DNA of 64,000 bases from an uncultured Pseudomonadota bacterium (GTDB taxonomy: Bacteria; Myxococcota_A; Polyangia; Fen-1088). Below, piece by piece: positions 9,263 to 24,363 of the stretch (position 1 is its first letter; each line of letters begins with the position of its first letter). The DNA lies in NCBI GenBank assembly GCA_963737345.1, contig CAVTSM010000009.1, forward strand, positions 7,532 to 71,531, read 5' to 3'. The notes under the pieces were generated by a model that had not been told where the DNA came from, did no database searches, and saw only the letters and a list, made by a program, of their open reading frames with translations. The position numbers and the translations under genes were made by a program.

Positions 9263-10216
9263 ATGAGCAGCCCGACGTACGTTCCCATTGAGCGCGTCGA
9301 AGGGCTCACGGTCGACGACTTTCGTCGACGCTTTGACCATCCGCAGCTTCCCGTCGTCATCACCGGCGCGATGCGCGAATGGAAGGCGTTGTCGAGATGG
9401 AACCACGCCTGGTTCAAAACGTTTGGCGATCTAAAGGTCCAGCTCAGCCTCGAGAGAGCCCATAACGCGCGCTCCAAGGAAACGACCATCTCCGACTACG
9501 TAGATTCAATTTTAAATGATACCGCCGGCGGGCACTACATGGACCAGTTTCCGTTCGAGAGGATTCCTGAACTCAACTCCTATGTGGAATCCGTGTACGT
9601 GCCACAGGAGCAGCTCAGAACCCATCATCTCTGGCTCGGCCCGGCCAACACGGAGATTAGCTTCCACAAGGACAACCACGATCCGTACCTCCTGGTCAGC
9701 AATCTGTTCGCCCAGATCAGTGGGCGAAAGCGCGTCCTTCTCGTGACGCCGGATCAGGACTCCGCGATGTACCCTTTCGACTCGGACCAGGGGCCGTACT
9801 GGCACAGTCAGGTCGATCACAATGCGCCTGACTTCGAGAAGTTTCCGAGGTTCAGACATGTCCGAATCTTGGAGGCAATCCTCCATCCTGGAGAAATGCT
9901 CTTTATTCCGGGAAATTACTGGCATTCGGTTCGCGCCCTTGACAGGAGCATTTCCGTCAGCTGTTGGTGGTTCACGCACCGGTTGGTCGACCTGTTCTTT
10001 GCCGGGTCGACCGCGCTGCAGGAAGGTAAGGCTTTTACTCCGATAACCATTCCTGATGTCGATGCGTTCGGGGGCGTGGCGAGGCTGTTGGCGGCATTGG
10101 ATGTCTTGCCACCGGAACAGCACGAAGCGGTCCTCACGTTGTCCACTCCAGAGGTGAGGCGGGTTATCCAGCTTGCAAGAGGGACGCGTGATCGGGTCGC
10201 AGATGTTGACCCCTAA
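9263..10216 (+). CDS. JmjC/cupin_8-type Fe(II)/2-oxoglutarate oxygenase (putative hydroxylase)
   Basis: ORF 9230-10216; I prefer ATG 9263, preceded by AAGGAG at 9251-9256. The N-terminus (PVVITGAMREWKALSRW) and an HxD...H triad (SFHKDNHD, NYWHSV) fit the JmjC/FIH-like cupin fold. About 70 bp downstream of and co-oriented with the NRPS TE. Lower GC (47% on line 9481). Confidence 0.8.
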   Translation: MSSPTYVPIERVEGLTVDDFRRRFDHPQLPVVITGAMREWKALSRWNHAWFKTFGDLKVQLSLERAHNARSKETTISDYVDSILNDTAGGHYMDQFPFERIPELNSYVESVYVPQEQLRTHHLWLGPANTEISFHKDNHDPYLLVSNLFAQISGRKRVLLVTPDQDSAMYPFDSDQGPYWHSQVDHNAPDFEKFPRFRHVRILEAILHPGEMLFIPGNYWHSVRALDRSISVSCWWFTHRLVDLFFAGSTALQEGKAFTPITIPDVDAFGGVARLLAALDVLPPEQHEAVLTLSTPEVRRVIQLARGTRDRVADVDP

Positions 10217-10453
10217 TCTTCGCATACGCCGGCGACAGTGAAGCCATCCGCGTTGTCCTGAGACTCGACGAACGAGCGGGCCACCGGCGCCGGGCTCCAC
10301 ATGTGTCGTGTGCATCCGTCGGACTCGCTCGTCAAAATGTAGCCGAACGGCTCTAGCAGCCCGCGGGCGGCTGAACCCAGTTTCCCGTCTAGCATCACAA
10401 CTCGCGGCGTCCGAGCTGTGCGATGGTCCGCGCCCGCCGCTTGGGGTGAGAAG

Positions 10454-12994
10454 TCAACCCAGCCAGTAGGCCAGCTTGATAATCAGCACGTCGTCCGCCG
10501 CCCGTCCCTGCCAAATAGGTGCTAACTCCAGCTCGCGGTTTCCGTTTGCCGGGACCGTCGTTGCAGGCGTCTGGGCGCGCGTGTAGACCAAAAATAGCGT
10601 CGAGCCGAGACGGTACTCCCACCTGAGCACAACGTTTACGTTTAGGGTCGCTTGGTTGGTGTCGGGACTGGCGCTGGGCGGTGCGGCAGGAAGGAGCGAC
10701 CCGATGTCCACACGCTCGCGGAAGCTCTGCTTCGGGAATACATAAAACGGTCCGTAGTTCACCTTTGCCAGGAAGAGCTGGGCGTACACCTGTAGTGAGA
10801 GCTGTGGCGTAAAGGTGTACGCCGCCCGAATAGTTGCCCCGGCGGTGACCGCCAGCTGAAGGCCGAACGTGTAATAGGCGACACCCGTGATCGGCGACAG
10901 CGTAGGGGCGGGGCCCACGTACCTTGGCGCACCACTATCGTAGCTCACGGTAGGGGTCATGCTGATTTCCAGCTGCGGCAACAGTCGCAACGTCAGCTGC
11001 CCCTGTACGTCCAGATGGTTCCCATCGCGGTGCCGGTCGAAATCCCCGATCACGGTTCCGATCGCGCGCCGGCGTGGATCGGTCACCACGATAAGGTACA
11101 CCCCCACGTTGCCCGGCCGCTCCAGCGCAGCTCCGTCCCCCATCTCCCGGTCATCGTAGTAGTCGGCCCGGCCGTGGACCTCGAACGCGAGCGTCCAAAA
11201 GTTCGTGAACGTTAGGGTCGTGTTCGCCATCAGCTCACGCCACAGGTTCAGGCCGTCGAGCGTCTGGCGGATGTTCAGCTGCAGGCTACTGCGCGTCTCG
11301 CGCGTGCGCCGCCAAGGGGAGAGAGTCCGATACGTGAGCGTAAAATATCCCTGGTAGTCGTTCTTACGTTCCAGGTAGCCGAGGTCATTGAACTCCAGCT
11401 GGCGACCTGTCAGGTGCTGCCACGCGCTCCAAAGCCAGTGCGGCCCGCCCTCCTTTCCGATATATACCGAGGCACCACCGTCCGGGTGGCCCGGTTGAAT
11501 GGCGATGCCGTCCGGTTCGCTGCGCTGTTCGCCGCCCGACAACATGCCACCGATAATCTGCCAAGCAGCGGAGTAGTCTCCTAATCCTGACCGCCAGCGG
11601 CCATCCAGGCTCAGCACGTATGCGTCGTTCGTGCACCGAGCGCCCACGGGGGCCTGCAAGCTTGCTGCGCAGCGCTGGCCGGCGACCACCGAGCGATCGA
11701 AGCGGTTCGTCGCTGTCGCCAGGAGGCCAACGTCGGCGTTGTCCGCGACCAGTCGCTTGAGGCGCAACACGTTGTACGCTGTCACGGGCTCGGCGAGACG
11801 CAACGTTCGGGAGCCGTCTGTTGACTGCACCTCGACCGCGTTCTCGCCCGTGATGGCGGACATCGCGCCGACGGTGGTGCGCCCGTTAAAGGTGCCGGAC
11901 ATCTTGGCCGCGCCCCAAATGCGCGATGGATCCGGCAGTGCGACCAGGGCTTCGCCGCTCATCACGCTCGGGGCAGCGGGTTGCCGCCCGATGCGGCGCG
12001 AGTAGACGAGGGGGCGGATCGTCGCGAACGCGTCCAGCGCTTCTAGGAAGAACGGCCGCCTTTCCGGGAAGAAGGTCTCGAACGTCGACAGGTTTAGAAT
12101 GACGGCATCGGCCTCGACCTGTCCGAAGTCGGGATTGACCGTCATGGTCAACGTCAGCTCGTTCGTCAGATGGGCCTGCGCGTCTAGGCCGGCGGAGCCG
12201 CCAAGGAACCATCCCTTCGAGACGACCTCTTGCACGCCCGGCGCGCGGTGCTCGATGCGTCCCAACGCGAAGGGCGTCACCTCTAGCAGCCCCGGCGCCG
12301 GCAAGCCAACGAGCCCGTCCAGCCGGCCGAACCACGGGACTACGCTGGCGGCGTCACGCGGGTAGAATGCCCAGTCGTCATACTCTTGGCGGGCATCGAT
12401 GAACCGTCGGACCTGAAAACCCCATGAGGTGGTCGGGCGCGCTGTGAACCGCAACGTGGCCAGCGGAATGCGAAACTCGACGCTGTAGCCGTGCCCGATC
12501 TCGGCAACCTTGGCCTCCCAAATCCCGTCCCAATCTGACGAGAAGTCCGTATCGTTGAAGTGGACGCCGTCCATTAGCGCGCCGGCGGCGTTAATTGAGA
12601 AGTGAAACGCCGTTACGCCGTCATCGCGACTGTCGATGTCGATCCATACGCCGTCGGACGGCAGAGGGCCGTCGCGCCGCTGCAGCCGCTTAGAGATCGG
12701 CGCGTTCACCTGCGGGCAGTCGACGCCAACGTAGAGGTTGTGGTCGTCGTAAACTACGCGCACAAAGGTCGGGTCGCTGGGCGGTGCTCCCTCGCCAGGC
12801 TGGTGCTGCGTGAACCCGCCAGACACCACAGCCGTTTGCCAGACTGGGTCGTCCAGGCGACCGTCGATGTTGGGTGGCGTCACTGCACGTGTGGCGAGGG
12901 TGTGCGGGCGGAGCGGAGGCTCTACGCGCGCCGCCGTCGCAAGCGCGGCGACGACGATGGCCAGGGGGACGAGGCTCAGCACAGGTGCGACCAT
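10454..12994 (-). CDS. Secreted/outer-membrane protein with an N-terminal CBM9/DOMON-like module (DUF5916-type)
   Basis: ORF 10454-13207. Internal ATG 12994 gives a signal-peptide-like N-terminus (MVAPVLSLVPLAIVVAALATAARV). PPNIDGRLDDPVWQ...VVYDDHNLYVGVDC resembles CBM9-type modules, followed by a long beta-rich region ending KLAYWLG. Confidence 0.6.
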   Translation of the reverse strand: MVAPVLSLVPLAIVVAALATAARVEPPLRPHTLATRAVTPPNIDGRLDDPVWQTAVVSGGFTQHQPGEGAPPSDPTFVRVVYDDHNLYVGVDCPQVNAPISKRLQRRDGPLPSDGVWIDIDSRDDGVTAFHFSINAAGALMDGVHFNDTDFSSDWDGIWEAKVAEIGHGYSVEFRIPLATLRFTARPTTSWGFQVRRFIDARQEYDDWAFYPRDAASVVPWFGRLDGLVGLPAPGLLEVTPFALGRIEHRAPGVQEVVSKGWFLGGSAGLDAQAHLTNELTLTMTVNPDFGQVEADAVILNLSTFETFFPERRPFFLEALDAFATIRPLVYSRRIGRQPAAPSVMSGEALVALPDPSRIWGAAKMSGTFNGRTTVGAMSAITGENAVEVQSTDGSRTLRLAEPVTAYNVLRLKRLVADNADVGLLATATNRFDRSVVAGQRCAASLQAPVGARCTNDAYVLSLDGRWRSGLGDYSAAWQIIGGMLSGGEQRSEPDGIAIQPGHPDGGASVYIGKEGGPHWLWSAWQHLTGRQLEFNDLGYLERKNDYQGYFTLTYRTLSPWRRTRETRSSLQLNIRQTLDGLNLWRELMANTTLTFTNFWTLAFEVHGRADYYDDREMGDGAALERPGNVGVYLIVVTDPRRRAIGTVIGDFDRHRDGNHLDVQGQLTLRLLPQLEISMTPTVSYDSGAPRYVGPAPTLSPITGVAYYTFGLQLAVTAGATIRAAYTFTPQLSLQVYAQLFLAKVNYGPFYVFPKQSFRERVDIGSLLPAAPPSASPDTNQATLNVNVVLRWEYRLGSTLFLVYTRAQTPATTVPANGNRELELAPIWQGRAADDVLIIKLAYWLG

Positions 12995-13453
12995 TCTATA
13001 GCCGCTAGCTACAGCGGTCGTGGACTGCTCGCCGAGTTGGTGTCGTCCGATATGCGAAAAATGGGGCAGCCGGGGACCGGCCGCCATGAACCAGTTGGCG
13101 CACGAGTGGGGCGCTATCTGGCGTATGCTCGGCCGTGCGTTCGAAGTTGGCGACGACGCCTGTGCATAGGATCCGCCCGCGAATACCGAGCACACGTCCG
13201 AGGCCACCTGCTACTTCGCCGCGCCGGCTGTACGCCGCGCCGCAGACACAAATGCGCCCTTGAAGTGGCCGCGCCGTTAGCCCGCCCGACCTCGATGTCG
13301 CGCCGGCCCACCAGCACGCACAGCGTGCACGGGTTCGTGGCCACCGCAAGTCACAGGTGCGCGCGCGCGGTAAGGCTTTGTGGGCCCGAGAGAGAGCGGA
13401 CCCCGTGGCAAAGATCCGACGGTGGTGTTGGTCGCTTTCCCGGCGATCAGCGA

Positions 13454-14766: not shown

Positions 14767-15924
14767 TTGCGGAGTCCGGCGGTGACGTCCTCTGAGACGG
14801 TGAAAATGCCGCGCTGCGGGTGGTCAGCGCTGCGGACCTGTTTGATGGTGGCGCGGTCGTGTGCCGGCGGAAAGGTGAGACGTCGGCCGAGCGAGCCGCA
14901 ACTGTCCTCGGGAATGCCCGAGTCGGGTCCAGGTGCCTCTGTGGATCAGGAGCTCGACCTCTTCAAACGCGCAGATGTGTGTGCGTACGCAGCGACCGGT
15001 GGATGCCACCTGGTTCGCTACGAGACCCGATATGGGGGGCGCACTCGGGGATCGACAGCCTCGAGCGTGTTGATGCGTCACCGGGCTATCGACGAGAAGG
15101 TCCTCCTCCGCCTCCATCACGACGGTCACTGCACGTATCTCAGCGTTAGGGACGAACGCGACAATGGGACGATCATCGACTTCGTCCTGCGGAGGGGAAG
15201 TGGCGGTCTTGTCGCTGTTCGGGAGGAGCTCCGTGTTTGGGCCCGCGACCTTCGCGCGACGACCGCGCCAGCGCGAGCCCGTACCCCGACGCCGGACCAA
15301 CTTGGCCGAGCCAGGGTCTGTGACGCCTATTCGCGCGCGCGGATCGTGGCGAACCATCTCCATCTGAACAGCCGCGGAATCCGACCCGAGATGCTTGCCT
15401 CCTTGCGGTTCGTAGATACCTGGCGCGTCGACATCCACGGCGATCTGCTCTTTCGGCATCGAGACGGGGTAGGTCCGGAGAGCATCTGTGGCTTCGAACG
15501 TAAGAATGCGCACTTTGCGGGCTTCTCGGCCGGTGGCCGCAAAGCCGTCTGGGTCGGCAATTCGAAAGACGATGACGACAAGCTCGTCATCACTGAGGCA
15601 GTCATCGACGCGTTCAGTTACCACCAGCTCCAACCGAACGAGCGCGCCCGCTACGCCAGTACCTGCGGCTCCTTCGGCGAGCGTCAGGGACGCCACGTCG
15701 CCGCGGCCATCGCATCCTTGCCGTCCGGTTCCACGGTCGTGATCGCAGCAGACAGCGATCTCGCCGGCGACAAGCTGGCCGAAAGGATCCGGCTTCTCGC
15801 CGCTGACGCACGAACCGTGCGCCAGCGAGCACCACTCGGCAAGGAGTGGAACGAGTGCTTGCAACGTCACGAGCGCGACTACATCAGGTCTCTGGGTCTG
15901 CCTGGACCGGGCCGGTCGCGATGA
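14767..15924 (+). CDS. DUF3991/Toprim-domain protein (TraC-like plasmid primase family)
   Basis: TTG-initiated ORF; ATG 14914 is an alternative start. Toprim Glu and DxD motifs (LVITEAVIDAFS, VVIAADSDLAGDKLA). The N-terminal half (GTIIDFVLRRGSGGLVAVREEL) resembles DUF3991. Confidence 0.65.
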   Translation: MRSPAVTSSETVKMPRCGWSALRTCLMVARSCAGGKVRRRPSEPQLSSGMPESGPGASVDQELDLFKRADVCAYAATGGCHLVRYETRYGGRTRGSTASSVLMRHRAIDEKVLLRLHHDGHCTYLSVRDERDNGTIIDFVLRRGSGGLVAVREELRVWARDLRATTAPARARTPTPDQLGRARVCDAYSRARIVANHLHLNSRGIRPEMLASLRFVDTWRVDIHGDLLFRHRDGVGPESICGFERKNAHFAGFSAGGRKAVWVGNSKDDDDKLVITEAVIDAFSYHQLQPNERARYASTCGSFGERQGRHVAAAIASLPSGSTVVIAADSDLAGDKLAERIRLLAADARTVRQRAPLGKEWNECLQRHERDYIRSLGLPGPGRSR

Positions 15925-16367
15925 CGTCATCGGGCGGGGCTCGTCGTATCACAGCAATCCAGCTCCGAACTGGCGGGGAGATCACCGCTCAACTGCTCTG
16001 CGGCGGCCCCTTTTCCATCATCAATGGCGACGGGAGCGACATCGCGCTCTTGGCTCCGGGTCGCGTGGTCGCCTATTTCGTGGCACGAGGGCACAGTATC
16101 GGCCTGTATGTGTTCCGGACGGCGGGTGGGGGAGGGCGGACCGCCGTCCCGGGCGTGAGTGAGCCCGTCTGCTTACTACTATCGAGCGGCAGGCGGGGAA
16201 CGGCCGAGCGGGTTCGCAAGTTCATCCGAAACGTGACGAGCTACGGTCATGATCCCTCCGAGCTCACGGACGAGTTCTGGACCCGCGCGGCCGGAGTTCT
16301 GCTCGCGCGGTGTCGACCCAGCGCCCAGCTGCTCTCATCGCTGCTGGCGCGGGAGTCTCGGCCGTAG
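15921..16367 (+). CDS. Hypothetical protein (ICE backbone)
   Basis: ATG 15921 overlaps the upstream stop (ATGA). GC3-rich, with no motif I recognise. Its last ~145 nt recur at 19281-19425. Confidence 0.45.
   Translation: MTSSGGARRITAIQLRTGGEITAQLLCGGPFSIINGDGSDIALLAPGRVVAYFVARGHSIGLYVFRTAGGGGRTAVPGVSEPVCLLLSSGRRGTAERVRKFIRNVTSYGHDPSELTDEFWTRAAGVLLARCRPSAQLLSSLLARESRP
16216..16360. repeat. Direct repeat copy A (3' end of gene 15921-16367)
   Basis: Aligned by eye to 19281-19425. The first 60 nt (16221-16280 vs 19286-19345) differ at 5 positions; the remainder is clearly related but more diverged. Confidence 0.75.
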
Positions 16368-16550
16368 GGACATGGTGCCAGCCTAAACACGAAACGGCCA
16401 GTGGCCGGTATCGGTCGCCGAATGCTCCCTCAGCCTCGCACATTTCGCCAAGCTCGAGGTGGCGGGGCGATTACCGCCCGGGCAGATTATCCACAACGCG
16501 ATTGCGGCCCGAGCGCGCAACTGTCTATCATCGGATCCGATTATCCAAAC

Positions 16551-17405
16551 ATGCGTACCTGCAATTTCTTAGCCACCGTTGTTGTTCTCGGTCTGATTCC
16601 GATCGCTTCGGGCTGCCCGACACGCATGGTGAACCTCCCGGACGGCGGTACTGGCGGGACCGTGGCTTCCGGCGGTGGTGGCCATGCTGGTGGCGTCGCC
16701 GGAGGTCCGGGCGGCGCGGCGGCAGGTGCGCAGGCTGTCGGAGGTGCGGTCGGTTCAGGCGGTGCTGGTGGCCTCGCTGGTATCGGCGGAACCGCGGCAG
16801 CAGGAGCCGGTGGGGCGGCGGGGGCGGTTGAAACGGGCGGAGTCGCCGGAGCGGCTGGTGGCGGCGGACACGCGACCGGCGCCGCGGGAGGGGGCGGTGC
16901 AACCGCTGGTACGGACGGAGGAACGGGCTGCCTCGCAAGTGAGGGCACCATCGACTTCGAGGATCTGTTCAATACGGAGACTTTCAAAGCAGTCTCCCTA
17001 CCGTACTTGCATGCAGGCTTCAGCCTGACGACCGACGACCCCGACGGGCTCACGGTTGTCGGAACCAAGGCTGTTCAGTACCTGGGCACGACCGCGGTGA
17101 GTGCCACCAACACCGCGATCGTCAGGCTCACCCGGACAGACGGCAAACCATTTGCGCTCCTCTGGATTGACCTCGCGCCGCATAACATCGGCCACCCGGG
17201 GATCGCATACTCGTTCATAGGGCACAGGGCGGATGGCACCACGACCAGCGAGACGATCTTGCTCCAAAGCGAGAAGGCAGGTTTTCTGCCCTACACTCTT
17301 CCGGCTTCCTTCGACAACGTACTGTCGGTCGACTGGACAATGAATACGGCGGACACGGCCCAGTACTTCGACAACATTCGCTACTCCTTTTGTCCAGGAG
17401 GCTGA
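16551..17405 (+). CDS. Lipoprotein with a Gly/Ala-rich linker, unknown C-terminal domain
   Basis: ORF 16401-17405. ATG 16551 gives a lipoprotein signal (MRTCNFLATVVVLGLIPIASGC), then ~100 aa of G/A-rich linker and a ~170-aa domain with no motif I recognise. Confidence 0.55.
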   Translation: MRTCNFLATVVVLGLIPIASGCPTRMVNLPDGGTGGTVASGGGGHAGGVAGGPGGAAAGAQAVGGAVGSGGAGGLAGIGGTAAAGAGGAAGAVETGGVAGAAGGGGHATGAAGGGGATAGTDGGTGCLASEGTIDFEDLFNTETFKAVSLPYLHAGFSLTTDDPDGLTVVGTKAVQYLGTTAVSATNTAIVRLTRTDGKPFALLWIDLAPHNIGHPGIAYSFIGHRADGTTTSETILLQSEKAGFLPYTLPASFDNVLSVDWTMNTADTAQYFDNIRYSFCPGG

Positions 17406-19231
17406 GAGGTCCGCTTCCGACGCGCGTCCGCCGACGCGCGATCGAAGTTCCTGCGGTACGCGGGAGATGTCGGATCGAGCTCGAGAGCCTTCTGGAACTG
17501 CGCTGCAGCAGAGTCGAAGTCTCGTCGCGATACGTCGACCATGCCTAAGTCGTTGTAGATGGCGGGATCGTCCGGCCGGAGCCGTAGCGCCTGCTGCAGC
17601 ACCTCGACCGCGCCGGCGAGGTCGCCCGAGCGTCCGAGCGCGACGCCGAGGTCGATGAGCAAGGGCGCATGAGACGGTCGAAGCCGCGCCGCTTCTTTGA
17701 GCTCCGTTGCCGCCTCGGCGAACCGATTCTGATCGGACAGAAGGCGCCCGAGGTCATGCCGCGCCTCGAAGTAGGTCGGACGTAAGCGAATAGCCTCTCG
17801 ATAGCCCTGTTCGGCGGCCTCTAGCTCGCCTCGATGCTGGTGAGTCACGGCCAGCACGTACACCAGCTCTGGCCGCATGTCGTCGCGCTCCGCGCAGAAG
17901 CGCCAGGGGGCGACGGTGAGAACAACCGAAACAACGACGGCGACCGTGGCCGACCAAGGCAAGGTCCATCTTCGCGAGCGGACGCTATCAGCGATGAAGG
18001 TGAGCCCTCGAGCTGCGAGGACAGCGAGAACCGGGATGAGGGCGATCCGATACCGCCCTACGACGAAAACGATGACCAGAACGGCACCGTAGCTGAAGAG
18101 CATCAGCCACAAGGGCCACGCGATTCGATGCCGTCCCACGATGCCGCCAAGAACCGCGAGCGGCAACAGCGCGCCGAACGGGAACCCGAAGAAGCCAGCT
18201 CTCCAGATGCCGGCCCTTAGTACCCACGACTCCGGTCGGAATAGATAGACGTCGAGATTCCGCGGAAGCTCTCGAGACGCGACCAGCGCAAGGGCCTTTG
18301 CGCCCAGGCCGGCGAGAAATCTCACGGGCGAATGGACGGCGAATTCGACAGCCCGGTGGCGAAACCAGTCGTCCTCCTGCCACAGGCCGGTAACGCCCTG
18401 GGCCAGCGGCCGCCGGACCATCAGGTCCCAATCCAGTCCCGGCCTCATGGCAATGATCCGGCAACCCTCGTCGTTGTTCCCGATGAAGAGATTCAAGCCC
18501 GCGGCCGCAGACATGACCGTGAACCGACCGGTCTCTTGAGAGGTGGCCAGGGCTGCGACGAACAACACGCTGAAAAGCAACGCTGCCGCGCAGGCGACCC
18601 CGCCGAGCCGACGCGGACGCGGTCCGCGAAAGGACACGACCGCTAGTCCGACCAGCCCAAGGACACAGAACGGCAGGAACGTCGACCGGATCAGGACGGC
18701 TAGCCCTGCGACCATCCCCCAGCCCACACCCCAGAACCATCGTCCGCTGTCGGCAACCCTGAGCGTCAGCAGGACAGCCGTCACCGTCAGCAGGGCCGTC
18801 AACCCTGCGTCCAGGAGTTCTCCCTCCAAGAATATCAGCGGCGCGTATAGGGCCACGATCAGGCCGGCGACCAACGCTTCCACCCGACCGAACGTCCGCC
18901 GAGCCAGAAAGTACGTGGCTACCGACGTTCCCACTCCGAGGGCGAGCTGGATCGCTTTCGCGAGCAGGACCGATGGCGCCAGCAGTCCGTAGATCAGCGA
19001 CAGAAAAAGCGGATACCCCACTCCGTGGGAAAACCAGTCGTCCGCCAGCGCCGGCCGACCGGCGGCGTACTTTCTCGCGAGGGCGTCGAAAATCTCCGAA
19101 TCGACGATCGGCAGCTCGAACGAGTCAGTTCTGGCCCTCGTCCAGAAATACGCGGCGCGAGCCACTATGGCGCATGTCGCCACCAGGATAACGAGACGAG
19201 TGTCGGCAAGCGTCTTCCGCTCTGAAATCAT
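17381..19231 (-). CDS. GT-C type membrane glycosyltransferase-like protein (family 39/83-like) with C-terminal TPR repeats
   Basis: 616-aa ORF. The N-terminal ~440 aa are multi-pass membrane sequence resembling ArnT/PMT-type enzymes. The C-terminal ~170 aa carry TPR-like repeats (EAIRLRPTYFEARHDLG, ALRLRPDDPAIYNDLG, ALELDPTSPAYRRNF). Confidence 0.6.
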   Translation of the reverse strand: MISERKTLADTRLVILVATCAIVARAAYFWTRARTDSFELPIVDSEIFDALARKYAAGRPALADDWFSHGVGYPLFLSLIYGLLAPSVLLAKAIQLALGVGTSVATYFLARRTFGRVEALVAGLIVALYAPLIFLEGELLDAGLTALLTVTAVLLTLRVADSGRWFWGVGWGMVAGLAVLIRSTFLPFCVLGLVGLAVVSFRGPRPRRLGGVACAAALLFSVLFVAALATSQETGRFTVMSAAAGLNLFIGNNDEGCRIIAMRPGLDWDLMVRRPLAQGVTGLWQEDDWFRHRAVEFAVHSPVRFLAGLGAKALALVASRELPRNLDVYLFRPESWVLRAGIWRAGFFGFPFGALLPLAVLGGIVGRHRIAWPLWLMLFSYGAVLVIVFVVGRYRIALIPVLAVLAARGLTFIADSVRSRRWTLPWSATVAVVVSVVLTVAPWRFCAERDDMRPELVYVLAVTHQHRGELEAAEQGYREAIRLRPTYFEARHDLGRLLSDQNRFAEAATELKEAARLRPSHAPLLIDLGVALGRSGDLAGAVEVLQQALRLRPDDPAIYNDLGMVDVSRRDFDSAAAQFQKALELDPTSPAYRRNFDRASADARRKRTSQPPGQKE

Positions 19232-19280
19232 CCCAGCAACCGGACCGTACCATTTTCAGTCGGCGCGGCACGGCTTCCCC

Positions 19281-19425
19281 GCAACTTCATTCGAAACGTG
19301 ACGAGCTACCGTCATGATCTCTCCGAGCTCACAGGCGAGTTCTGGGCACGCGGCGCTGGCGTCCTGTTCGGCCGGCCCGGACGGAGCGCCCAGTCGCTCT
19401 CCACGATCCTGGTACGCGAGGCTGC
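19281..19425. repeat. Direct repeat copy B (orphan 3'-end fragment related to gene 15921-16367)
   Basis: See copy A. It has no upstream coding partner, because it directly follows the start of the minus-strand gene 17381-19231. Confidence 0.75.
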
Positions 19426-19436
19426 ACGTTTGGGCG

Positions 19437-19910
19437 ATGTTGTGCGCGGGGACGGTCGCGCTGATCCTGACCACCGGCACGGCCGTCCTCGCGTCGCGAT
19501 TGACTCGGAACTACACGCCAAGTCTCCCTCGCGGGGTGTACTGGCTCAGGCCGGGGCTCCCTATTAAAAGAGGGGCGCTGGTCGATTTTCCCATCCCACC
19601 GAAGGCGCGCGGGCTGATCGCCGACCGCTACCTTCCTGCACGGTTCCATCTCCTGAAGCGTGTGGTCGCCCTGGAGGGGGACATCGTCTGCCTCGCCGAT
19701 GGCCGCTTCCTCGTCAACGGGCTCGAGATCGCGACGATTGCCAGCCGGGATTCAATAGGTCGGCCGCTGCCGGCATTCGAGTTCTGCGGTCCGGTCCCAC
19801 CTGGCACCGCGTTCGTTGCGACGCCCGTCTCGTCCAGTCTGGACTCGCGCTACTTCGGGCCCGTTCCGCTGTCGGCCCTCACCGTCGCGACGCCCGTATG
19901 GACCTCCTGA
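19437..19910 (+). CDS. traF: Conjugal transfer protease TraF (S26 signal-peptidase-like)
   Basis: ORF 19314-19910; ATG 19437 gives the TM anchor MLCAGTVALILTTG. SLPRGVYWL, LLKRVVALEGDIV and DSRYFGPV match IncP TraF. Confidence 0.85.
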   Translation: MLCAGTVALILTTGTAVLASRLTRNYTPSLPRGVYWLRPGLPIKRGALVDFPIPPKARGLIADRYLPARFHLLKRVVALEGDIVCLADGRFLVNGLEIATIASRDSIGRPLPAFEFCGPVPPGTAFVATPVSSSLDSRYFGPVPLSALTVATPVWTS

Positions 19911-20656
19911 CCGTCATCCTCGCCTGCAGCCTTCACCCGGACGACCGGCTTGTGGAAGCGTTCGTGCGGAAGCTGTCAGACGCGAACCCGCTCTTTGTAG
20001 GTGACTTCGTCTCGCTCGCCACCCACGACGACCTCGCGTCGCCGGAGCAGGCGCTCGAGCTCGCAAGGTCGATCGCCGACAAAGGTGGACGCCCAGGCCT
20101 CGGCCTGATGGCTATCCCGATGACCTGGGCGGCCCGCTTCAATCGGGAGCCGGCCGACCTTCTCGACCCTTGCACGAATATCTCTATCGGCACCGCGATG
20201 ATGGCGTCCTTTGCGGCGGACTGCGCGGGGTCGAGGCAACACGCGAAGGCGCGAAGAGGACCGGCAAGACCGCTCTCCCGTCGAAAGCTCGGCCCGGTAA
20301 GGGGCTGCATCCTTGGGGGCTTCGAACGCGACATCGGGGTTCGGGGCTTCACGCATATCATCGCGGAGATCCCTCGTCTCCCCGTGCGCGACCTCGACGC
20401 CGACCTGCCGCCCGAGCGGTCGAGCGTGTTCGAGCGCGACGCGCCCGAGGCGCGCCCCCAGGCGCCCGTCGATCCCTCGGCTCCTACCGCCTCAGCACCA
20501 CCGCGAGCAATGTCAGACCCCGCACGACGAACCCCGAGAGCTAGCTCGACGCAGTCAGCAGCAGGAGCACGAACATCCGCCAGCCTGCCGGGCCACCCAA
20601 GGCTGCACCCAGTGGCCCCCGCGCTCCCCATTGCGGGCGCCCGCGCTCGGCCATGA
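19898..20656 (+). CDS. TrbN/VirB1-like (SLT-type transglycosylase-like) transfer protein; 3' end uncertain
   Basis: The start overlaps the traF end by 13 nt. SPEQALELARSIADKGGRPGLGLMAIPMTW...LLDPCTNISIGTAMMASF resembles the TrbN/SLT motif series; the catalytic Glu is not obvious. The last ~60 aa are P/A/R-rich and read into the remnant at 20483-20717. Confidence 0.5.
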   Translation: MDLLTVILACSLHPDDRLVEAFVRKLSDANPLFVGDFVSLATHDDLASPEQALELARSIADKGGRPGLGLMAIPMTWAARFNREPADLLDPCTNISIGTAMMASFAADCAGSRQHAKARRGPARPLSRRKLGPVRGCILGGFERDIGVRGFTHIIAEIPRLPVRDLDADLPPERSSVFERDAPEARPQAPVDPSAPTASAPPRAMSDPARRTPRASSTQSAAGARTSASLPGHPRLHPVAPALPIAGARARP

Positions 20657-20717
20657 GGTACCCGCGGTGATGGAGATGCCGCCGAAGGCGACGCCAATCG
20701 TCCCGAGGACCGCCGCG
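20483..20717 (-). pseudogene. 3'-end remnant of a paralogue of the membrane-protein gene 22616-23233
   Basis: Nucleotide similarity to 22616-22929. The shared strings include caatgtcagaccc, gcaggagcacgaacatc and ggcgggcgcccgcgctcggccatgag. Relative to the intact copy it has a ~80-nt deletion and a frame change. It ends 9 bp from the stop of the DGQHR gene. Confidence 0.65.
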
Positions 20718-20726
20718 GGCGGCGGA

Positions 20727-21866
20727 TCAGTCTTGGGCCATGCGTGCTGCGCGTCCGACGGCGTTGATCCCCGCGATACGGCCGAGTTCACGGTGGATGC
20801 GCGCGACGCGCTCGACCTGCCCTTTGGCCGGGAACCGTTCGTAGAATCCCTCGCTGCGGAATGTCCTGACCTCCGCCGTCCAGGGGGAGAGCTTCCGTTC
20901 CCACCGCTTGACGCGTCCCTCTTCGGGCTCGGCATCCGCGTGAGCGAGGTCAGCGCAGATCCGCAGCATCGCCTTCAGTGTCACGGGACGCGTGATCATG
21001 TAGCTCTGGCTACCCCAGGCATTGCCCCAGACCTTCTCAGCGGCCTTCAGGAAGTCCCGCACCGTCTCGTAAAGACGGGTCTTAAGCGCCCGGGGTGTTC
21101 CCTGCTTCTTGAGTGCCTTCCAGTCCGCGGACACCCAGCGGTGGATTTCGTTGAAGAGTTCGGCCTGCAGGATCCATTTCTGCTGCTGGCTGCGGCCGCC
21201 CAGGCGGTTGATACGATAACGGAGCGGGCTGTCGCCCTCGGCGTAGAGGCTCCCGACCACCTGGGCCGCGAGCCGCTTGTCGGGCGCCGACCAGGAGACG
21301 CGCTCGTACAGATCGACGAGGTGGCTTTTGTTGATGCGGGTCGGGGTCGAGTTGATGATCACGAACATCTCGGTGGCGAAGTCTTCGCTCTTCCCGTCGA
21401 AGATCACGCAGGGTACGTGTAGTCCGTGCGCGTCGTCGGGGCGCTCTTTCTGGAAGAAATACAGGGCCGCCAGCCGATGCTGGCCGTCGATGATCAGGTA
21501 CTTCTCTCGCGGGCTCTCCAGGTTCCCGACATTCTCGAACTTTCCAAGTGGCTCGAACCCGAGCCTCTCAGGTGTGAAAAGTAGGACGGTCCCTGGGATC
21601 GGGGGCTGGCTGACCGCCGTCTCGTAGAAGTTCTTGATCGCGGCGACCTTCGCCTTCGATAGATCGCGCTGAAACGCGGTATCAGTGCGCTCGATTCGGG
21701 AAATGAAGTGGGCAACGTCGTCGGTTGGGTCGACCTCGGCCGGTGCGATTTGGCCCTCATCCGCGTAGAAGCGACTGATGAACTGGACCTTCTCCAGCAG
21801 ATCTTCGGTCGGGTACGACACGAAATAGAACACGCTGTCCTTCTGTCGAACCTGGGTCGCGAGCAT
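20727..21866 (-). CDS. DGQHR-domain protein (DndB-like, ParB-fold superfamily)
   Basis: 379-aa ORF. YLIIDGQHRLAALYFF is the eponymous DGQHR motif, followed by FVIINSTPTRINKSHLVDL as in that family. No dnd, ssp or dpd partner genes are nearby. Confidence 0.8.
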   Translation of the reverse strand: MLATQVRQKDSVFYFVSYPTEDLLEKVQFISRFYADEGQIAPAEVDPTDDVAHFISRIERTDTAFQRDLSKAKVAAIKNFYETAVSQPPIPGTVLLFTPERLGFEPLGKFENVGNLESPREKYLIIDGQHRLAALYFFQKERPDDAHGLHVPCVIFDGKSEDFATEMFVIINSTPTRINKSHLVDLYERVSWSAPDKRLAAQVVGSLYAEGDSPLRYRINRLGGRSQQQKWILQAELFNEIHRWVSADWKALKKQGTPRALKTRLYETVRDFLKAAEKVWGNAWGSQSYMITRPVTLKAMLRICADLAHADAEPEEGRVKRWERKLSPWTAEVRTFRSEGFYERFPAKGQVERVARIHRELGRIAGINAVGRAARMAQD

Positions 21867-22072
21867 GCGGCGATGTTACCCGCAACCCGTTGCCGTCGTC
21901 ACCGACGCTGAACAAGGGCTGAGAGATGGTCGAAGCGCGGCCCGATTTAGGGCGGCCCGGGAGGTCACCGAGGACGGGGGACGGACCGGGCTGCGATTAC
22001 GCGAAGGACTTATCGTGGACGGGGATCGCGCGTCGGACGAACCAGGCGCCACGACCCCCGGCGGTCAAGCAA

Positions 22073-22450
22073 TTAGGCCGCCTTGAGCTTCTTCGCTTTC
22101 CGCGCCTGGCGATACTTCTTGATCTGGGTCTTGGGTACGTCCTTGTGCTTCGAGCAAACCATCCCAAAGACTGGAGCAGCCGGATTCTTGCAGCCCGGCA
22201 CCGGGCACAGTTGCTTGGGCCCTTTTCGGCGCGCTTTTCGAAACGCGCCGAGGTCGGTGATCTTGGCAGGCCGGCCCGGAGCGCGTCTGCCGATACCGAG
22301 TGCGCTCTCGACCGCGACACGAGCGCGGTCCTGGGTCTGGCGATCGAGAAGATCCGCGAGTTGGTTGGCGAATGAATCGATGAGCGAGCGAATTGCGTCC
22401 ATTGCCGGGCGATACCATTCGATGGTTCCGCAATCAAGCGAAATGTCCAA
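22073..22450 (-). CDS. Small basic putative DNA-binding protein
   Basis: 125-aa ORF (ATG 22402 is an alternative start). Coiled-coil-like N-terminus and a K/R-rich C-terminus with a CPVPGC...CSKH cluster. Co-oriented, 206 bp upstream of the DGQHR gene. Confidence 0.45.
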   Translation of the reverse strand: MDISLDCGTIEWYRPAMDAIRSLIDSFANQLADLLDRQTQDRARVAVESALGIGRRAPGRPAKITDLGAFRKARRKGPKQLCPVPGCKNPAAPVFGMVCSKHKDVPKTQIKKYRQARKAKKLKAA

Positions 22451-22615
22451 ATCCGTGCCACGACTTCAACTGATGGTGCAGGCACAAACTGACCTACAAA
22501 GTGCCACCTGGCGGGCCGATCTCGATGGGCGGCGTCACAATGGCGCGTGTCGCCGTGAACTCAAACCATCATCAATGATGCGAGGCACGAGCGCAGAAGA
22601 CCGGTTCCTTTGTTA

Positions 22616-23233
22616 CTACCGTCTCAGCGCAACCGCGAGCAATGTCAGACCCACCGCGATTGTCCCAGTCGACAGCGCGACTAGCACCCAGCCCACCGCC
22701 CGCACCCGCAGAGGATGGCTGGAGTGGGTGGCGCGCCAGCCCGCCCGCAGCCAACTTGATGCCGCCGGCAGCAGGAGCACGAACATCAGCCAGCCCGCCG
22801 GAGCACCCAGGGCCACACCCAGCGCTCCCCGAGCTCCCCATGGCGGGCGCCCGCGCTCGGCCATGAGATACCCCGCGGCCATGCAGATGCCACCGAAGCC
22901 GACGCCAATCGCTCCGACGAACGCCGCGAGCTGCGGGTTCCATGTCGCTGTAGCGGAGATTGAGGGGGCCCGCGACCGCCCCGAGCTTGGTCCGGCGCCG
23001 AGTCTCCGCAGCTCCCCGATGGCCTTGCGCGTTTCAGCGCCAATCTTCTCGGGAATGACCGTGTAGAGCTGGAGGTGATAGTCGAGGGCGATCATGACGT
23101 CCCAGATTGCGTCCGCCGAACGGATCCCGAGCGCGTCGCGAACCTTCGCCAGTCGCTGGCGCTCCGCTTCGGTCGGCAGCCGCCCCATCAGCGTCTTGAA
23201 CGCGTCGTCCGGGAGCACCTGGGCCTCACCCAT
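22616..23233 (-). CDS. Membrane protein in the traM position of an IncP-like leader operon
   Basis: 205-aa ORF overlapping the upstream ParA-like gene by 8 nt. Soluble N-terminal half and hydrophobic C-terminal segments (AAFVGAIGVGFGGICMAAG, WLMFVLLLPAA, VGWVLVALSTGTIAVGLTLLAVAL). Confidence 0.55.
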   Translation of the reverse strand: MGEAQVLPDDAFKTLMGRLPTEAERQRLAKVRDALGIRSADAIWDVMIALDYHLQLYTVIPEKIGAETRKAIGELRRLGAGPSSGRSRAPSISATATWNPQLAAFVGAIGVGFGGICMAAGYLMAERGRPPWGARGALGVALGAPAGWLMFVLLLPAASSWLRAGWRATHSSHPLRVRAVGWVLVALSTGTIAVGLTLLAVALRR

Positions 23234-23912
23234 CGATGATTTCCGCCATCACGCGTGCGACGGCGCTCCTCCATCGGCGGAGCTCGGCTCGATTGCCGAT
23301 CGGGAGCTTGTCCGCCGCGGCCGCGATGGTCATTCGCTCCTTGTAGAGATCGTCGGCCACTCGATCCGCGAGGTCGGGGAAGCTCACCGACTTGCCTCCG
23401 GTGCTCTCGACTCGGGGACGCAGCGTCTTTGACGCCGCATAGAGCTCGAATTTACTTTCGTCACCGAAGTAGAGGTTCCGGAGCACGTGGACCCGAGACT
23501 TGGGCATCGACTCCATGAAATCGGCCAAGAGCTCCAGGCTGTCGCGCTGTCGATTGATGGCCCACAGCGCGACGAGCGAGCGATCGAGCTCGCCCAGTGA
23601 CTCACCGAGCGTCGTGCCGAACTTCGCCACGCCGGTGTTACTCCGAGCGGCAGTGTTGACGATGACGATCCTGTCCGGGTGGGTGTCGCACGCATTGACG
23701 AGCCCGATCCACCCGTCGACTTCGTCGAGATCGAGGAGTTGACACCCGATCGTGTCTCGGTACACCTTCCACACGTCGGGGTTGCTCGTGTCCGACTCGA
23801 TGAGCAGGGGCGTCGACTTTCGTGACATGAGGTAGTCGACGAGAGCCATGCTGACGATCGACTTCCCCACGCCGCCCTTGGCTCCGCCTATCCAGTAGAT
23901 GTTGGGTTTCAT
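23226..23912 (-). CDS. ParA/MinD-like P-loop ATPase (IncP TraL-like)
   Basis: ORF to 23945; ATG 23912 is preceded by GAGGAG. Deviant Walker A IGGAKGGVGKS, and a size (228 aa) and position matching TraL. Confidence 0.8.
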   Translation of the reverse strand: MKPNIYWIGGAKGGVGKSIVSMALVDYLMSRKSTPLLIESDTSNPDVWKVYRDTIGCQLLDLDEVDGWIGLVNACDTHPDRIVIVNTAARSNTGVAKFGTTLGESLGELDRSLVALWAINRQRDSLELLADFMESMPKSRVHVLRNLYFGDESKFELYAASKTLRPRVESTGGKSVSFPDLADRVADDLYKERMTIAAAADKLPIGNRAELRRWRSAVARVMAEIIDG

Positions 23913-23922
23913 GTGTAACTCC

Positions 23923-24363
23923 TCAGATATCCTTCGTGTCTTCACGGGGGACGAACGTGCCCGGGTCGCGTGGCGGCTTCGGAGACTCGCGCGGCTCGTC
24001 GCCGTTGACTCCGGCCGTCAGCTCGGCTCGACGGGGTGGGATCACCGGTTGACTCGAGGGTTGACTCGGCCGGCGCGGAGCGGCCTCTTTCGTTGACCGG
24101 CGGGTCTTCGTTCTTGACGTCACCCCCCGTTTCCAGAGGACCGTCTTGAGCGATCCGGCGGTCACTCGGCACCCTTCGCTGGAGACCAGCTCGGCGACTT
24201 CTTTCCAGGAGTAGCCGCGCTTGCGCAGGCCGAGGATCTCGTCGGTCATCCGCGCGATTGCTTCGAGCCGAGTGACTTTGCGTTCGGTCCCGTCCTTTTC
24301 GGGGATCGCGGCGAGGCGCTCCCGAATGGCGTCCACCGTGGCGACTGTCAGAGGCATCGCCAT
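23923..24363 (-). CDS. Putative relaxosome accessory DNA-binding protein (traK position)
   Basis: 146-aa ORF divergent from the relaxase gene. HTH-like segment (GYSWKEVAELVSSEGCRVTAGSLKTVLWKR) and a basic, Pro-rich tail. Confidence 0.45.
   Translation of the reverse strand: MAMPLTVATVDAIRERLAAIPEKDGTERKVTRLEAIARMTDEILGLRKRGYSWKEVAELVSSEGCRVTAGSLKTVLWKRGVTSRTKTRRSTKEAAPRRPSQPSSQPVIPPRRAELTAGVNGDEPRESPKPPRDPGTFVPREDTKDI

Follow-up and report, generated by a model that had tools for sequence, protein, structure and literature searches.

The locus raises the question of how a pair of accessory genes came to lie, bracketed by a duplicated gene end, among the transfer genes of a conjugative element. 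In the window, by which we mean the whole 64,000-nt stretch of DNA that was analysed and to which all coordinates refer, a conjugative element of a soil myxobacterium has gained a 1.9-kb accessory gene pair inside its tightly packed transfer-gene backbone, and this gain duplicated 335 bases of the target. The original prediction attributed the arrangement to a recurrent mechanism for loading two-gene modules at the 3′ ends of backbone genes. We find that the traM site clearly exemplifies a recombinase-free type of gene gain that is already known; it bears no sign of new loading machinery and does not indicate new biology. The features of the site are as follows.

22616–23233, minus strand: traM-position gene, intact, 205 aa (ORF list).
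22602–22936, minus strand: copy 1 of the 335-nt target, the working traM 3′ end plus about 14 nt past the stop codon.
22403–22601, minus strand: left end of the insert, a stretch of about 100 nt that leads into the region upstream of the small basic gene.
22073–22402, minus strand: gene for a small basic Cys/His protein, 109 aa from the ATG at 22402; the longest ORF reaches 22450.
21867–22072, minus strand: spacer between the cargo genes, whose last ~35 nt (21901–21867) belong to the DGQHR cassette.
20727–21866, minus strand: solitary DGQHR-domain gene, 379 aa (TIGR03187, PF14072).
20470–20725, minus strand: copy 2 of the target, a dead remnant as a traM piece.
19898–20656, plus strand: SLT-like (TraH-like) backbone gene, convergent with traM, with weak SLT and TraH-family hits.

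The traM-position gene is the last of the traK-traL-traM operon, which diverges from the relaxase gene. Its product has a conserved N-terminal domain and a membrane C-terminal part; it found no match in Pfam or NCBIfam, and its homologues in relatives, at 47–80% identity, occupy the same position. The stretch 20470–20725 is a direct, decayed copy of 22602–22936, the 3′ end of this gene, and lies 1876 nt away from it. MAFFT and the repeat finder align the two copies as three blocks of 79–84% identity, the largest with a blastn E-value of 1e-46, so that the repeat is genuine and far above chance. Both copies map to one 335-nt segment of the closest relative, L178. Indeed, copy 1 aligns to L178 8301–8635 inside an unbroken match (window 24499–22602, L178 6734–8635), and copy 2 runs on into the backbone (window 20725–19279, L178 8301–9783). 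One end of the segment lies 70 nt past the stop codon of the convergent SLT-like ORF, the other 14 nt past that of traM.

Pairwise alignment bore out most of what had been predicted of the remnant, namely a diverged, frame-broken 3′ copy with a deletion of ~80 nt, in the order traM, small basic gene, DGQHR gene, remnant. The deletion measures 78 nt, at about 20534, and is itself in frame; what disrupts the traM frame of copy 2 is the loss of 1 nt near 20663, together with a TGG>TAG change near 20543. The limit of the repeat had to be corrected: it had been placed 9 bp from the DGQHR stop codon (20727–20729), but homology reaches 20725, one base away. On the other side, homology continues about 14 nt beyond the traM stop, to 22602.

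Copy 2 is not dead on the opposite strand, a point overlooked earlier, since the SLT-like ORF reads into it. The last 58 codons and the stop of this ORF fall inside copy 2, and the position of the stop is homologous to that in every relative. The encoded protein has an N-terminal part of 190 aa conserved across clades and a Pro/Ala/Arg-rich tail. The 335-nt target brackets the 251-nt overlap of the traM and SLT-like ORFs, an overlap identical by ORF coordinates in six relatives; in nine relatives, as in copy 1 of the window, the antisense frame stays open over one and the same stretch of 82 codons. This 82-codon tail shows no sign of purifying selection (copy-2 changes fall 6/6/9 by codon position in the SLT frame) and tolerates a 26-codon deletion. 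Synonymous-codon shuffles kept the antisense frame open over at least 82 codons in 10–97% of trials; the conserved overlap is therefore no proof of function, and selection on the antisense tail was discarded as an argument. The duplication was thus not strictly needed for the SLT-like gene, which weakens the selective argument for the reading favoured below.

That the 1876 nt are an insertion, as proposed, is confirmed by comparison with relatives lacking them: the traM site is empty in at least 14 related elements, where traM is directly convergent with the SLT-like gene (L021, L144, L146, L148/149, L157, L164, L170, L178/179, L181, L182/183, L184, L185 and L186/187, with one further empty site on a contig known as a gene list only). 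L145 carries different cargo after traM, and both this site and the second one described below are cargo hotspots. In G018 (L022), the small basic gene lies beside a different relaxase (37% identity), accompanied by a 3′ fragment of traM and by 190 nt from the 3′ end of the SLT-like gene; this arrangement shows that homologous flanks can move the small basic gene cargo into a different element, and so counts against the duplication in situ favoured below. Searches at family and order level, both on one set of 89 genomes, yielded two further relatives of the element type, G102 and G110 (~72% TraL identity); a class-level search of 401 genomes found no relatives beyond these two. L151, which has the highest TraL identity of the relatives (96% aa over residues 25–175 of a truncated gene), was set aside as a closer source of the remnant, its decayed traM fragment being uninformative and grouping with L164/L157.

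Compared with eight relatives, copies 1 and 2 share at least four derived substitutions, located on both sides of a conserved core. The substitutions unique to copy 1 fall 2/2/11 by codon position (11 of 15 at the third position), and the 31 unique to copy 2 fall 9/13/9 over the traM codon positions. In our codon-position test, it is the working copy that changes at third positions and the displaced copy that changes evenly. Neutral divergence is ~12–13% in each copy. This pattern fits a duplication in situ followed by the decay of copy 2, and the traM-site insert is probably an "insertion with long target duplication" that arose in this way. Alternatively, the shared derived sites could stem from gene conversion between the copies.

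Could the second copy have come from elsewhere? If the integration was additive (Campbell-type) or facilitated by homology, the cargo would have come in on a circular or linear DNA, joined to the traM/SLT fragment of a related element; that DNA would have recombined with the resident traM region, so that the two copies would derive from two elements. The topology of the product is identical for any additive integration, G018 holds exactly such a piece of cargo joined to backbone homology, and the raw distances are star-like (79–80% identity between copies 1 and 2, 80% between copy 2 and L164, 85% between copy 1 and L164). However, the substitutions point to a single ancestor in situ: the derived sites common to both copies are missing from the eight other elements, and the even spread of the extra divergence of copy 2 over codon positions implies that it accumulated once the copy no longer coded for traM, and not in a different functional lineage. 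Moreover, the G018 fragment groups with the L164 lineage, apart from the window copies, and the identity of the window traM to its relatives shows no break at the duplication boundary. Sliding identity along the gene is uniform against L164 (85.0, 85.2, 84.4 and 88.5%), L157 and L178, on which ground an imported 3′ end was rejected. Integration of this kind thus seems unlikely to us, without being far-fetched. A short tandem duplication of the junction that came first, as a neutral change uncoupling the overlapping genes, with cargo arriving later by any mechanism and possibly repeatedly, would leave the same substitution signature as a duplication made together with the insertion; it would also account for duplicated segments that exactly bracket gene junctions and for cargo that is composite and turns over at both sites. 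Yet a tandem duplication free of cargo is seen in none of the at least 14 relatives whose junctions are visible, and homologous recombination would rapidly remove a perfect 335-nt tandem repeat, which makes this order of events quite improbable.

The remaining alternative, to which the original prediction corresponds, is a site-specific tyrosine or serine recombinase, since lost or acting in trans, and an element that brought a substitute 3′ end in an attL/attR layout. Integrase islands regenerate the 3′ end of their target, at att sites in tRNA or protein genes, and leave CIME-type remnants. The succession of intact gene, cargo and displaced 3′ fragment in direct repeat is the same here, it is found twice inside 7 kb, and a 25-nt run identical in both copies, CTCATGGCCGAGCGCGGGCGCCCGC, could in principle be the core. 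This run is simply the most conserved coding stretch across all relatives, and the shared lineage-specific substitutions on both sides of it disfavour the import of a substitute 3′ end: both copies belong to the same lineage and neither is an element-borne mimic. No recombinase or transposase domain was detected by Pfam, NCBIfam or PADLOC in any ORF of the 14.8–31.2 kb backbone, insert included. A short conserved sequence at the four junctions, which the original prediction had envisaged, did not emerge: no 8-mer is shared among them, and no 6-mer recurs at all four. The position of the traM-side junction is variable: in three elements its distance downstream of the traM stop codon is about 14 to 22, 47 and 190 nt, a difference of up to ~170 nt. 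Pieces of the cargo occur apart elsewhere without flanking repeats. We therefore hold a site-specific recombinase to be very improbable, and a dedicated loading mechanism for two-gene modules finds no support, given the same absence of a shared motif, the variable junctions and the shared lineage-specific substitutions. A transposon or insertion sequence was likewise rejected; the repeat finder revealed no inverted repeats pairing the ends of the insert, and the duplication is 335 nt, not short. Any microhomology at the junctions would have been erased, because the event is old (~12% neutral divergence).

The content of the insert does not support the notion of a two-gene module either. The DGQHR protein scores 122 bits against TIGR03187 (cut-off 58.85) and 37.8 bits against PF14072, DndB (cut-off 29.1), and remains far below the equivalog cut-offs for DpdB (49.9 versus 300) and DndB TIGR03233 (18.4 versus 328). 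With no dnd or dpd partner gene in the insert, its assignment from sequence is to the DGQHR domain family (TIGR03187) only, and it would be neither a DndB nor a DpdB. The gene is single-copy in the genome; between genomes it has 76–90% DNA identity, and homology ends within ~50 nt of the ORF on its upstream side and ~16 nt on its downstream side. On the upstream side, DNA homology to other DGQHR loci begins at 21884–21901, a motif there is conserved in L063–L066, and a −10-like TAACAT (21878–21873) precedes the ATG by 6 nt. The small basic protein found no match in Pfam, NCBIfam, PADLOC or PDB, and its family is present in 80 of the 89 genomes of the host's family, in 1–7 copies. Upstream of its gene, backbone homology ends ~14–22 nt past the traM stop, the motif CTTTGTAGGTCAGTT (about 22486–22500) is common to G018, and a −10-like TGGTAT (22417–22412) lies 9 nt before the ATG, in a promoter layout of leaderless type; motif and layout were both set against those of homologues. 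A promoter and terminator scan of the insert yielded nothing useful. Neither the small basic gene nor a transfer gene lies close to any of the 80 nearest DGQHR loci, and G018 shows the reverse, the small basic gene without DGQHR. The cargo is thus two independent, self-promoted single-gene cassettes, and since each is found alone elsewhere, the two genes probably arrived in separate steps. We also rejected the idea that long duplications travel with the DGQHR gene, as only three of the 80 loci have flanking repeats, all short (19–57 nt) and one of them inverted. [quoted passage not shown]

A second occurrence of the pattern within 7 kb had been predicted, and a repeat pair is indeed found there (16215–16377 and 19280–19442, 75% identity). 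Alignment with relatives extends it to ~16193–16377 and ~19257–19442, or ~185 nt, so that the gene15846/traF site reads as follows.

16193–16377, plus strand: copy 1, the working 3′ end of gene 15846–16367 plus about 8 nt.
16378–19256: second insert, with a lipoprotein gene (plus strand) and a GT39/PMT_2-TPR glycosyltransferase gene (17381–19231, minus strand).
19257–19442, plus strand: copy 2, the decayed 3′ end of gene 15846.

The signature is the same as at the traM site: the unique substitutions of copy 1 fall 2/2/8 (8 of 12 at the third position), the 30 of copy 2 fall 9/13/8, and the copies share four derived sites. Loading at the 3′ ends of genes holds only in part; the repeat topology is present at both sites, but the second duplicated piece is equally the upstream region and start of traF (19314–19910), which is all that copy 2 now serves as. 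The second insert is absent in L021, L149, L157, L170 and others. L178 has related but rearranged cargo at this site, flanked by a repeat that is its own. Copy 2 has boundaries that coincide to within ~3 nt in the window and in L178, yet the two copies of each element share private substitutions. Either one ancestral event was followed by conversion, or the site is a preferred one. No third duplication was found at the large cargo boundary near 31.2 kb or across the whole window.

Insertions with direct target duplications of 46–423 bp and no mobility genes are known; the duplications often span a start or stop codon, keeping the target gene intact, and single-gene inserts such as mcrA or an orphan methylase are among them (PMC2853133). 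Insertion into operon-like structures has also been reported (Nobusato, Uchiyama, Ohashi & Kobayashi 2000, Gene 259:99; Furuta, Abe & Kobayashi 2010, PMC2853133). Our two sites resemble these cases closely. Both traM-site repeats (22936–22602 and 20725–20470) align to the single-copy L178 8301–8635, with at least 14 empty sites; the repeats exceed 30 bp and vary in length (335 nt at traM, ~185 nt at gene15846/traF); the inserts are below 20 kb (1876 nt and ~2.9 kb) and devoid of integrase or transposase in Pfam, NCBIfam and PADLOC; and the repeats span a stop or start codon, the target gene surviving. The published cases concern chromosomal restriction-modification genes, for the most part in naturally competent species (PMC2853133), whereas no R or M gene is present here. 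Nevertheless, that criterion defined the published screen and not the mechanism, and DGQHR (TIGR03187, DndB-like) is a member of a defence-associated superfamily. Our cases differ further in their setting, since the target belongs to the transfer backbone of a myxococcotal conjugative element; in their cargo, DGQHR and the small basic gene or, at the second site, lipoprotein and glycosyltransferase genes; and in that one duplicated segment equals a 251-nt convergent ORF overlap. Published repeats are usually near-identical, which makes those events young; ours are old, at 75–84% identity.

Conjugative elements and plasmids have other variable-cargo positions, such as the SXT/R391 hotspots and the accessory-load sites of IncP-1. 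As in our element, accessory genes there occupy a few fixed backbone positions, with cargo that differs among relatives. To our knowledge, those hotspots are intergenic, and long backbone-coding duplications have not been reported at their bounds.

The physical mechanism of duplication and insertion we can only infer. A 335-nt backbone stretch, comprising the whole traM/SLT overlap with margins of 70 and 14 nt, would have been duplicated in place, and the 1876 nt of foreign DNA placed between the two copies. The upstream copy 1 continues to complete traM under purifying selection; the downstream copy 2, dead as traM, drifts neutrally while supplying the SLT-like gene with a dispensable tail and a stop codon. 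In one conceivable route, foreign DNA would have been captured at a staggered break with an offset of ~335 nt, and the ends then filled in; the host, which has two Ku genes, is equipped for end-joining. The other is serial template switching during replication, which would re-enter the backbone 335 nt upstream of the exit point. Recurrence at gene15846/traF probably reflects a survivorship filter and needs no special machinery: with backbone genes that adjoin or overlap one another, an insertion leaves all transfer genes intact, and so survives, only if it duplicates a gene junction.

These observations show that accessory genes can enter a nearly spacer-free conjugative backbone with all transfer genes left unbroken, and that such entry leaves a recognisable and datable scar. 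The codon-position test distinguishes a duplication in situ from an imported gene end and is usable for similar cases. Our two sites also extend "insertion with long target duplication" past restriction-modification genes and the chromosomes of competent bacteria.

A broader conjecture, which we think unlikely to hold, is that the slot after traM is the first cargo position of a leading region, the part entering the recipient first, and would be filled by an undescribed, recombinase-free traffic of single-gene cassettes; the traK-L-M "leader operon" of IncP is its analogue. Each cassette would consist, very tightly, of a leaderless-type promoter and an ORF. Were this so, a general, replication-based loading of establishment or anti-defence genes into conjugative elements would have long target duplications as its footprint. 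Three observations point in this direction: the DGQHR homology between genomes is high and narrowly limited to the gene; the small basic gene recurs on the leader side of the different relaxase of G018; and the insert looks like an assembly of pieces the size of single genes, a product to be expected of serial template switching.

The 14.8-31.2 kb segment is the DNA-processing half of a conjugative element, and its genes, with the cargo at the traM site, are laid out as follows:

14767-15924, Toprim/DUF3991-type primase-like gene
15846-16367, gene of 173 aa
19314-19910, TraF signal peptidase gene
19898-20656 (+), SLT-like/TraH-like gene
20727-21866 (-), DGQHR-domain gene (cargo)
22073-22402 (-), gene for a small basic Cys/His protein (cargo)
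22616-23233, traM-position gene, on the strand opposite to the primase-like, TraF and SLT-like genes
23226-23945, P-loop TraL gene, same strand as the traM-position gene
23923-24363, TraK-position gene, same strand as the traM-position gene
Remaining genes of the block: DUF3363 relaxase, TraG-type coupling protein and TrbB

The cargo at the traM site lies between two copies of one backbone segment. MAFFT and a repeat finder both delimit a direct repeat, 20470-20725 against 22602-22936, that aligns in three collinear blocks of 79-84% identity (blastn E = 1e-46 for the main block), the left copy showing one 78-nt and one 1-nt gap relative to the right. The right copy corresponds to the 3′ end of gene 22616-23233, which is intact and lies on the minus strand. 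The left copy begins well in the traM frame (AAVLGTIGVAFGGISITAG vs AAFVGAIGVGFGGICMAAG in the right copy); further on this frame is broken and contains stop codons, an internal TAG having also been reported. The original prediction was essentially right about the repeat and its coordinates, the homology extending about 14 nt past the traM stop and, in the left copy, to 20725, leaving a single base between it and the DGQHR stop codon.

Genome and metagenome searches recovered many elements with the same backbone. Both cargo sites, the traM site and a second one upstream of traF, are empty in L021 (from the same genus), L144, L146, L148/149, L157 and L170, where primase, 173-aa gene, TraF and SLT-like gene follow one another and face traM, TraL and TraK in convergent orientation. 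The same empty arrangement is found in L181, L182/183, L184, L186/187 and one contig known only as a gene list, all reached via TraM homologues, and the traM/SLT junction is empty in the short contig L164. The closest full-length relative is L178 (TraL 94.8% identical in amino acids; traK-traM 86% in DNA). Window 24499-22602 aligns with L178 6734-8635 and window 20725-19279 with L178 8301-9783; both copies therefore map to one 335-nt target, L178 8301-8635, which is the single-copy target in a relative with an empty site that an insertion with long target duplication calls for. The 1876 nt between the copies (20726-22601) are an insertion.

Did the repeat arise in place, or did the insert bring along a gene end from another element? 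Three results favour duplication in place over an imported end. The identity of the window traM gene to L164 is flat, at 85.0% upstream of the duplication and 85.2, 84.4 and 88.5% within it. When the substitutions unique to each copy are scored with L178, L164 and L157 as references, copy 1 (the right copy) has 15, distributed 2/2/11 over the traM codon positions, and copy 2 (the left) has 31, distributed 9/13/9; this split is what one ancestor would give with one daughter kept under selection and the other released. Finally, at least four substitutions are common to the two copies and missing from eight other elements, and they flank the most conserved stretch on both sides, although gene conversion between the copies could imitate such shared changes. 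The duplication is old: neutral divergence is about 12-13% for each copy.

The window layout matches what has been described as insertion with long target duplication, in which direct repeats of 46-423 bp flank inserts that lack mobility genes and relatives have empty sites; single-gene inserts and insertions into operon-like structures have also been reported (PMC2853133). The published cases concern chromosomal restriction-modification genes and are for the most part young (PMC2853133), whereas the window has old repeats, a conjugative backbone as the target and a different cargo. We regard the traM-site insertion as an old and well-documented case of an event type already known, here found in a new setting. 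The insertion could have proceeded by capture at a break with fill-in or, as another option, by template switching during replication. End-joining repair is available in the host, since its genome carries two Ku genes (G000:C9:161891-162436 and G000:C1:93710-94237).

The duplicated segment includes an overlap of two convergent genes. In six relatives the SLT-like ORF (278-280 aa) extends on the antisense strand into traM, overlapping its end by exactly 251 nt, and the same 82 antisense codons are open in nine relatives (L144, L149, L157, L170, L178, L182, L184-L186) and in window copy 1 (22616-22866); the corresponding stretch of copy 2 is 20483-20656. The position of the SLT-like stop is fixed whichever codon a clade uses (TGA or TAG), and the L178 target spans from 70 nt beyond this stop to 14 nt beyond that of traM. 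In the window the SLT-like ORF terminates 174 nt into the remnant; since 174 + 78 = 252, its stop lies at the same homologous position as in the relatives. The 78-nt deletion is in frame for this ORF and the 1-nt deletion lies past its stop, so that the remnant still provides the last 58 codons of a live SLT-like gene. This antisense tail is probably dispensable, as it is a low-complexity sequence rich in Pro, Ala, Arg and Ser with no conservation between clades, and no selection on it was detectable, the copy 2 substitutions falling 6/6/9 by SLT-like codon position. In addition, 10-97% of synonymous-codon shuffles of traM kept 82 or more codons of this antisense frame free of stops.

The second site lies at the junction of gene 15846-16367 with traF. 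Alignment with relatives places its copies at about 16193-16377 and 19257-19442. Copy 1 terminates about 8 nt past the stop of gene 15846-16367, and copy 2 holds the traF upstream region, including a GAGG box and the ATG. In relatives the traF ATG comes 5 nt after the upstream stop; the 119-nt overlap of the longest ORFs probably overstates the true traF start. The substitution signature is that of the traM site: by codon position, the 12 changes unique to copy 1 are split 2/2/8 and the 30 unique to copy 2 are split 9/13/8, and four derived sites are shared. In L178 this site is occupied by 3.26 kb (9805-13063) carrying genes for a lipoprotein with Vgb-lyase-like repeats and a PMT_2 glycosyltransferase, within a repeat of its own (9687-9804 vs 13148-13265, 88%). 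The copy-2 boundaries of L178 and the window agree within about 3 nt; the copy-1 boundaries are about 25 nt apart. The two elements share homology (67%) over the lipoprotein gene's promoter and its first 390 nt, a stretch that includes a ATCGGATCCGAT palindrome, but in L178 this stretch lies at the opposite end of the insert and in opposite orientation, inverted relative to the backbone. Within each element both copies share private substitutions; the copy-2 sequences of the two elements are united by one site. The simpler reading is one ancestral event followed by conversion and cargo turnover, though the two elements may instead have been hit independently at a favoured position.

At the traM site, the more distant relative L145 carries, instead of the window cargo, genes for a lipoprotein and a 694-aa subtilisin-type (S8) peptidase directly after traM (1800-4903); its contig stops before the far junction. 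Together with the empty sites, the second site with its identical signature and the other cargo in L178, this supports the proposal of insertion at a recurrent hotspot. We see no sign of a site-specific system behind these insertions. The short conserved sequence sought at the four junctions did not emerge, as no two share an 8-mer and none of the 6-mers occurs in all four; the insert ends are not paired by inverted repeats, and no recombinase or transposase domain was found in the ORFs of 14.8-31.2 kb. Moreover, the distance from the traM stop to the traM-side junction varies, being about 14-22 nt in the window against about 47 nt in L145 and about 190 nt in genome G018 (locus L022). With no junction motif, no recombinase and a variable junction, the idea of a dedicated loader of two-gene modules at gene 3′ ends finds no support.

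Nor are the two cargo genes the module first proposed: the nearest DGQHR loci lack the small basic gene, and in G018 the latter occurs with no DGQHR gene. The DGQHR gene has more than 550 close relatives across many phyla at about 70% amino acid identity, a level seen across Myxococcota, Gemmatimonadota, Nitrospirota, Verrucomicrobiota and Gammaproteobacteria, and neither the small basic gene nor a transfer gene occurs within 6 kb of it in the 80 closest loci. With the nearest loci, the window DNA is homologous (83-86%) from 21901 to 20716 and not beyond, and the DNA identity of the gene between genomes is 76-90% (loci L063-L142). Between these loci themselves, even where identity is 90%, the homology reaches no further than about 50 nt before the ORF and 16 nt after it. 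The gene behaves as a very tight single-gene unit. All nearest loci have a -10-like hexamer 6-8 nt before the ATG, a leaderless layout. Of the 89 genomes in the host's family, only 19 have the DGQHR gene, and the host genome has a single copy.

The small basic protein (109 aa; window 22073-22420) belongs to a family found in 80 of these 89 genomes, with 1-7 copies each, whose chromosomal copies (loci L035-L062) conserve a leaderless-type promoter layout, CTTGTTTGC ... TATTAT about 8 nt before the ATG. It had no match in Pfam, NCBIfam, PADLOC or PDB, and our guess would be a nucleoid-associated protein or a regulator. The gene for its nearest relative (81-83% in amino acids), in G018, adjoins a traM 3′ fragment and 190 nt of the SLT-like 3′ end (L022, G018:C1032 2800-3900), on the leader side of a different relaxase (37% identity) and with an RHH gene; homology to the window stops at its stop codon. 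In G018, cargo and a piece of backbone have moved as one.

The transfer genes of the element are split. The block with relaxase, coupling protein and TrbB stops at about 31.2 kb, as does homology to genome G004, and TrbL does not follow until 60.1 kb. The intervening stretch contains genes for kinases, a sigma-54 activator and a sigma factor, a SIR2-like gene and an ORF of 1435 aa, and a search of 31200-60000 found no flanking duplication. In another relative, on the contig of P0010, two extra genes (HTH_31 and transglutaminase-core) between the relaxase and coupling-protein genes would make a third cargo position in the backbone. Locus L151 (360-1050) is a decayed copy of the element in which a deletion joins traL, up to residue 175, to mid-traM, and this fusion adjoins an integrase N-terminal fragment.
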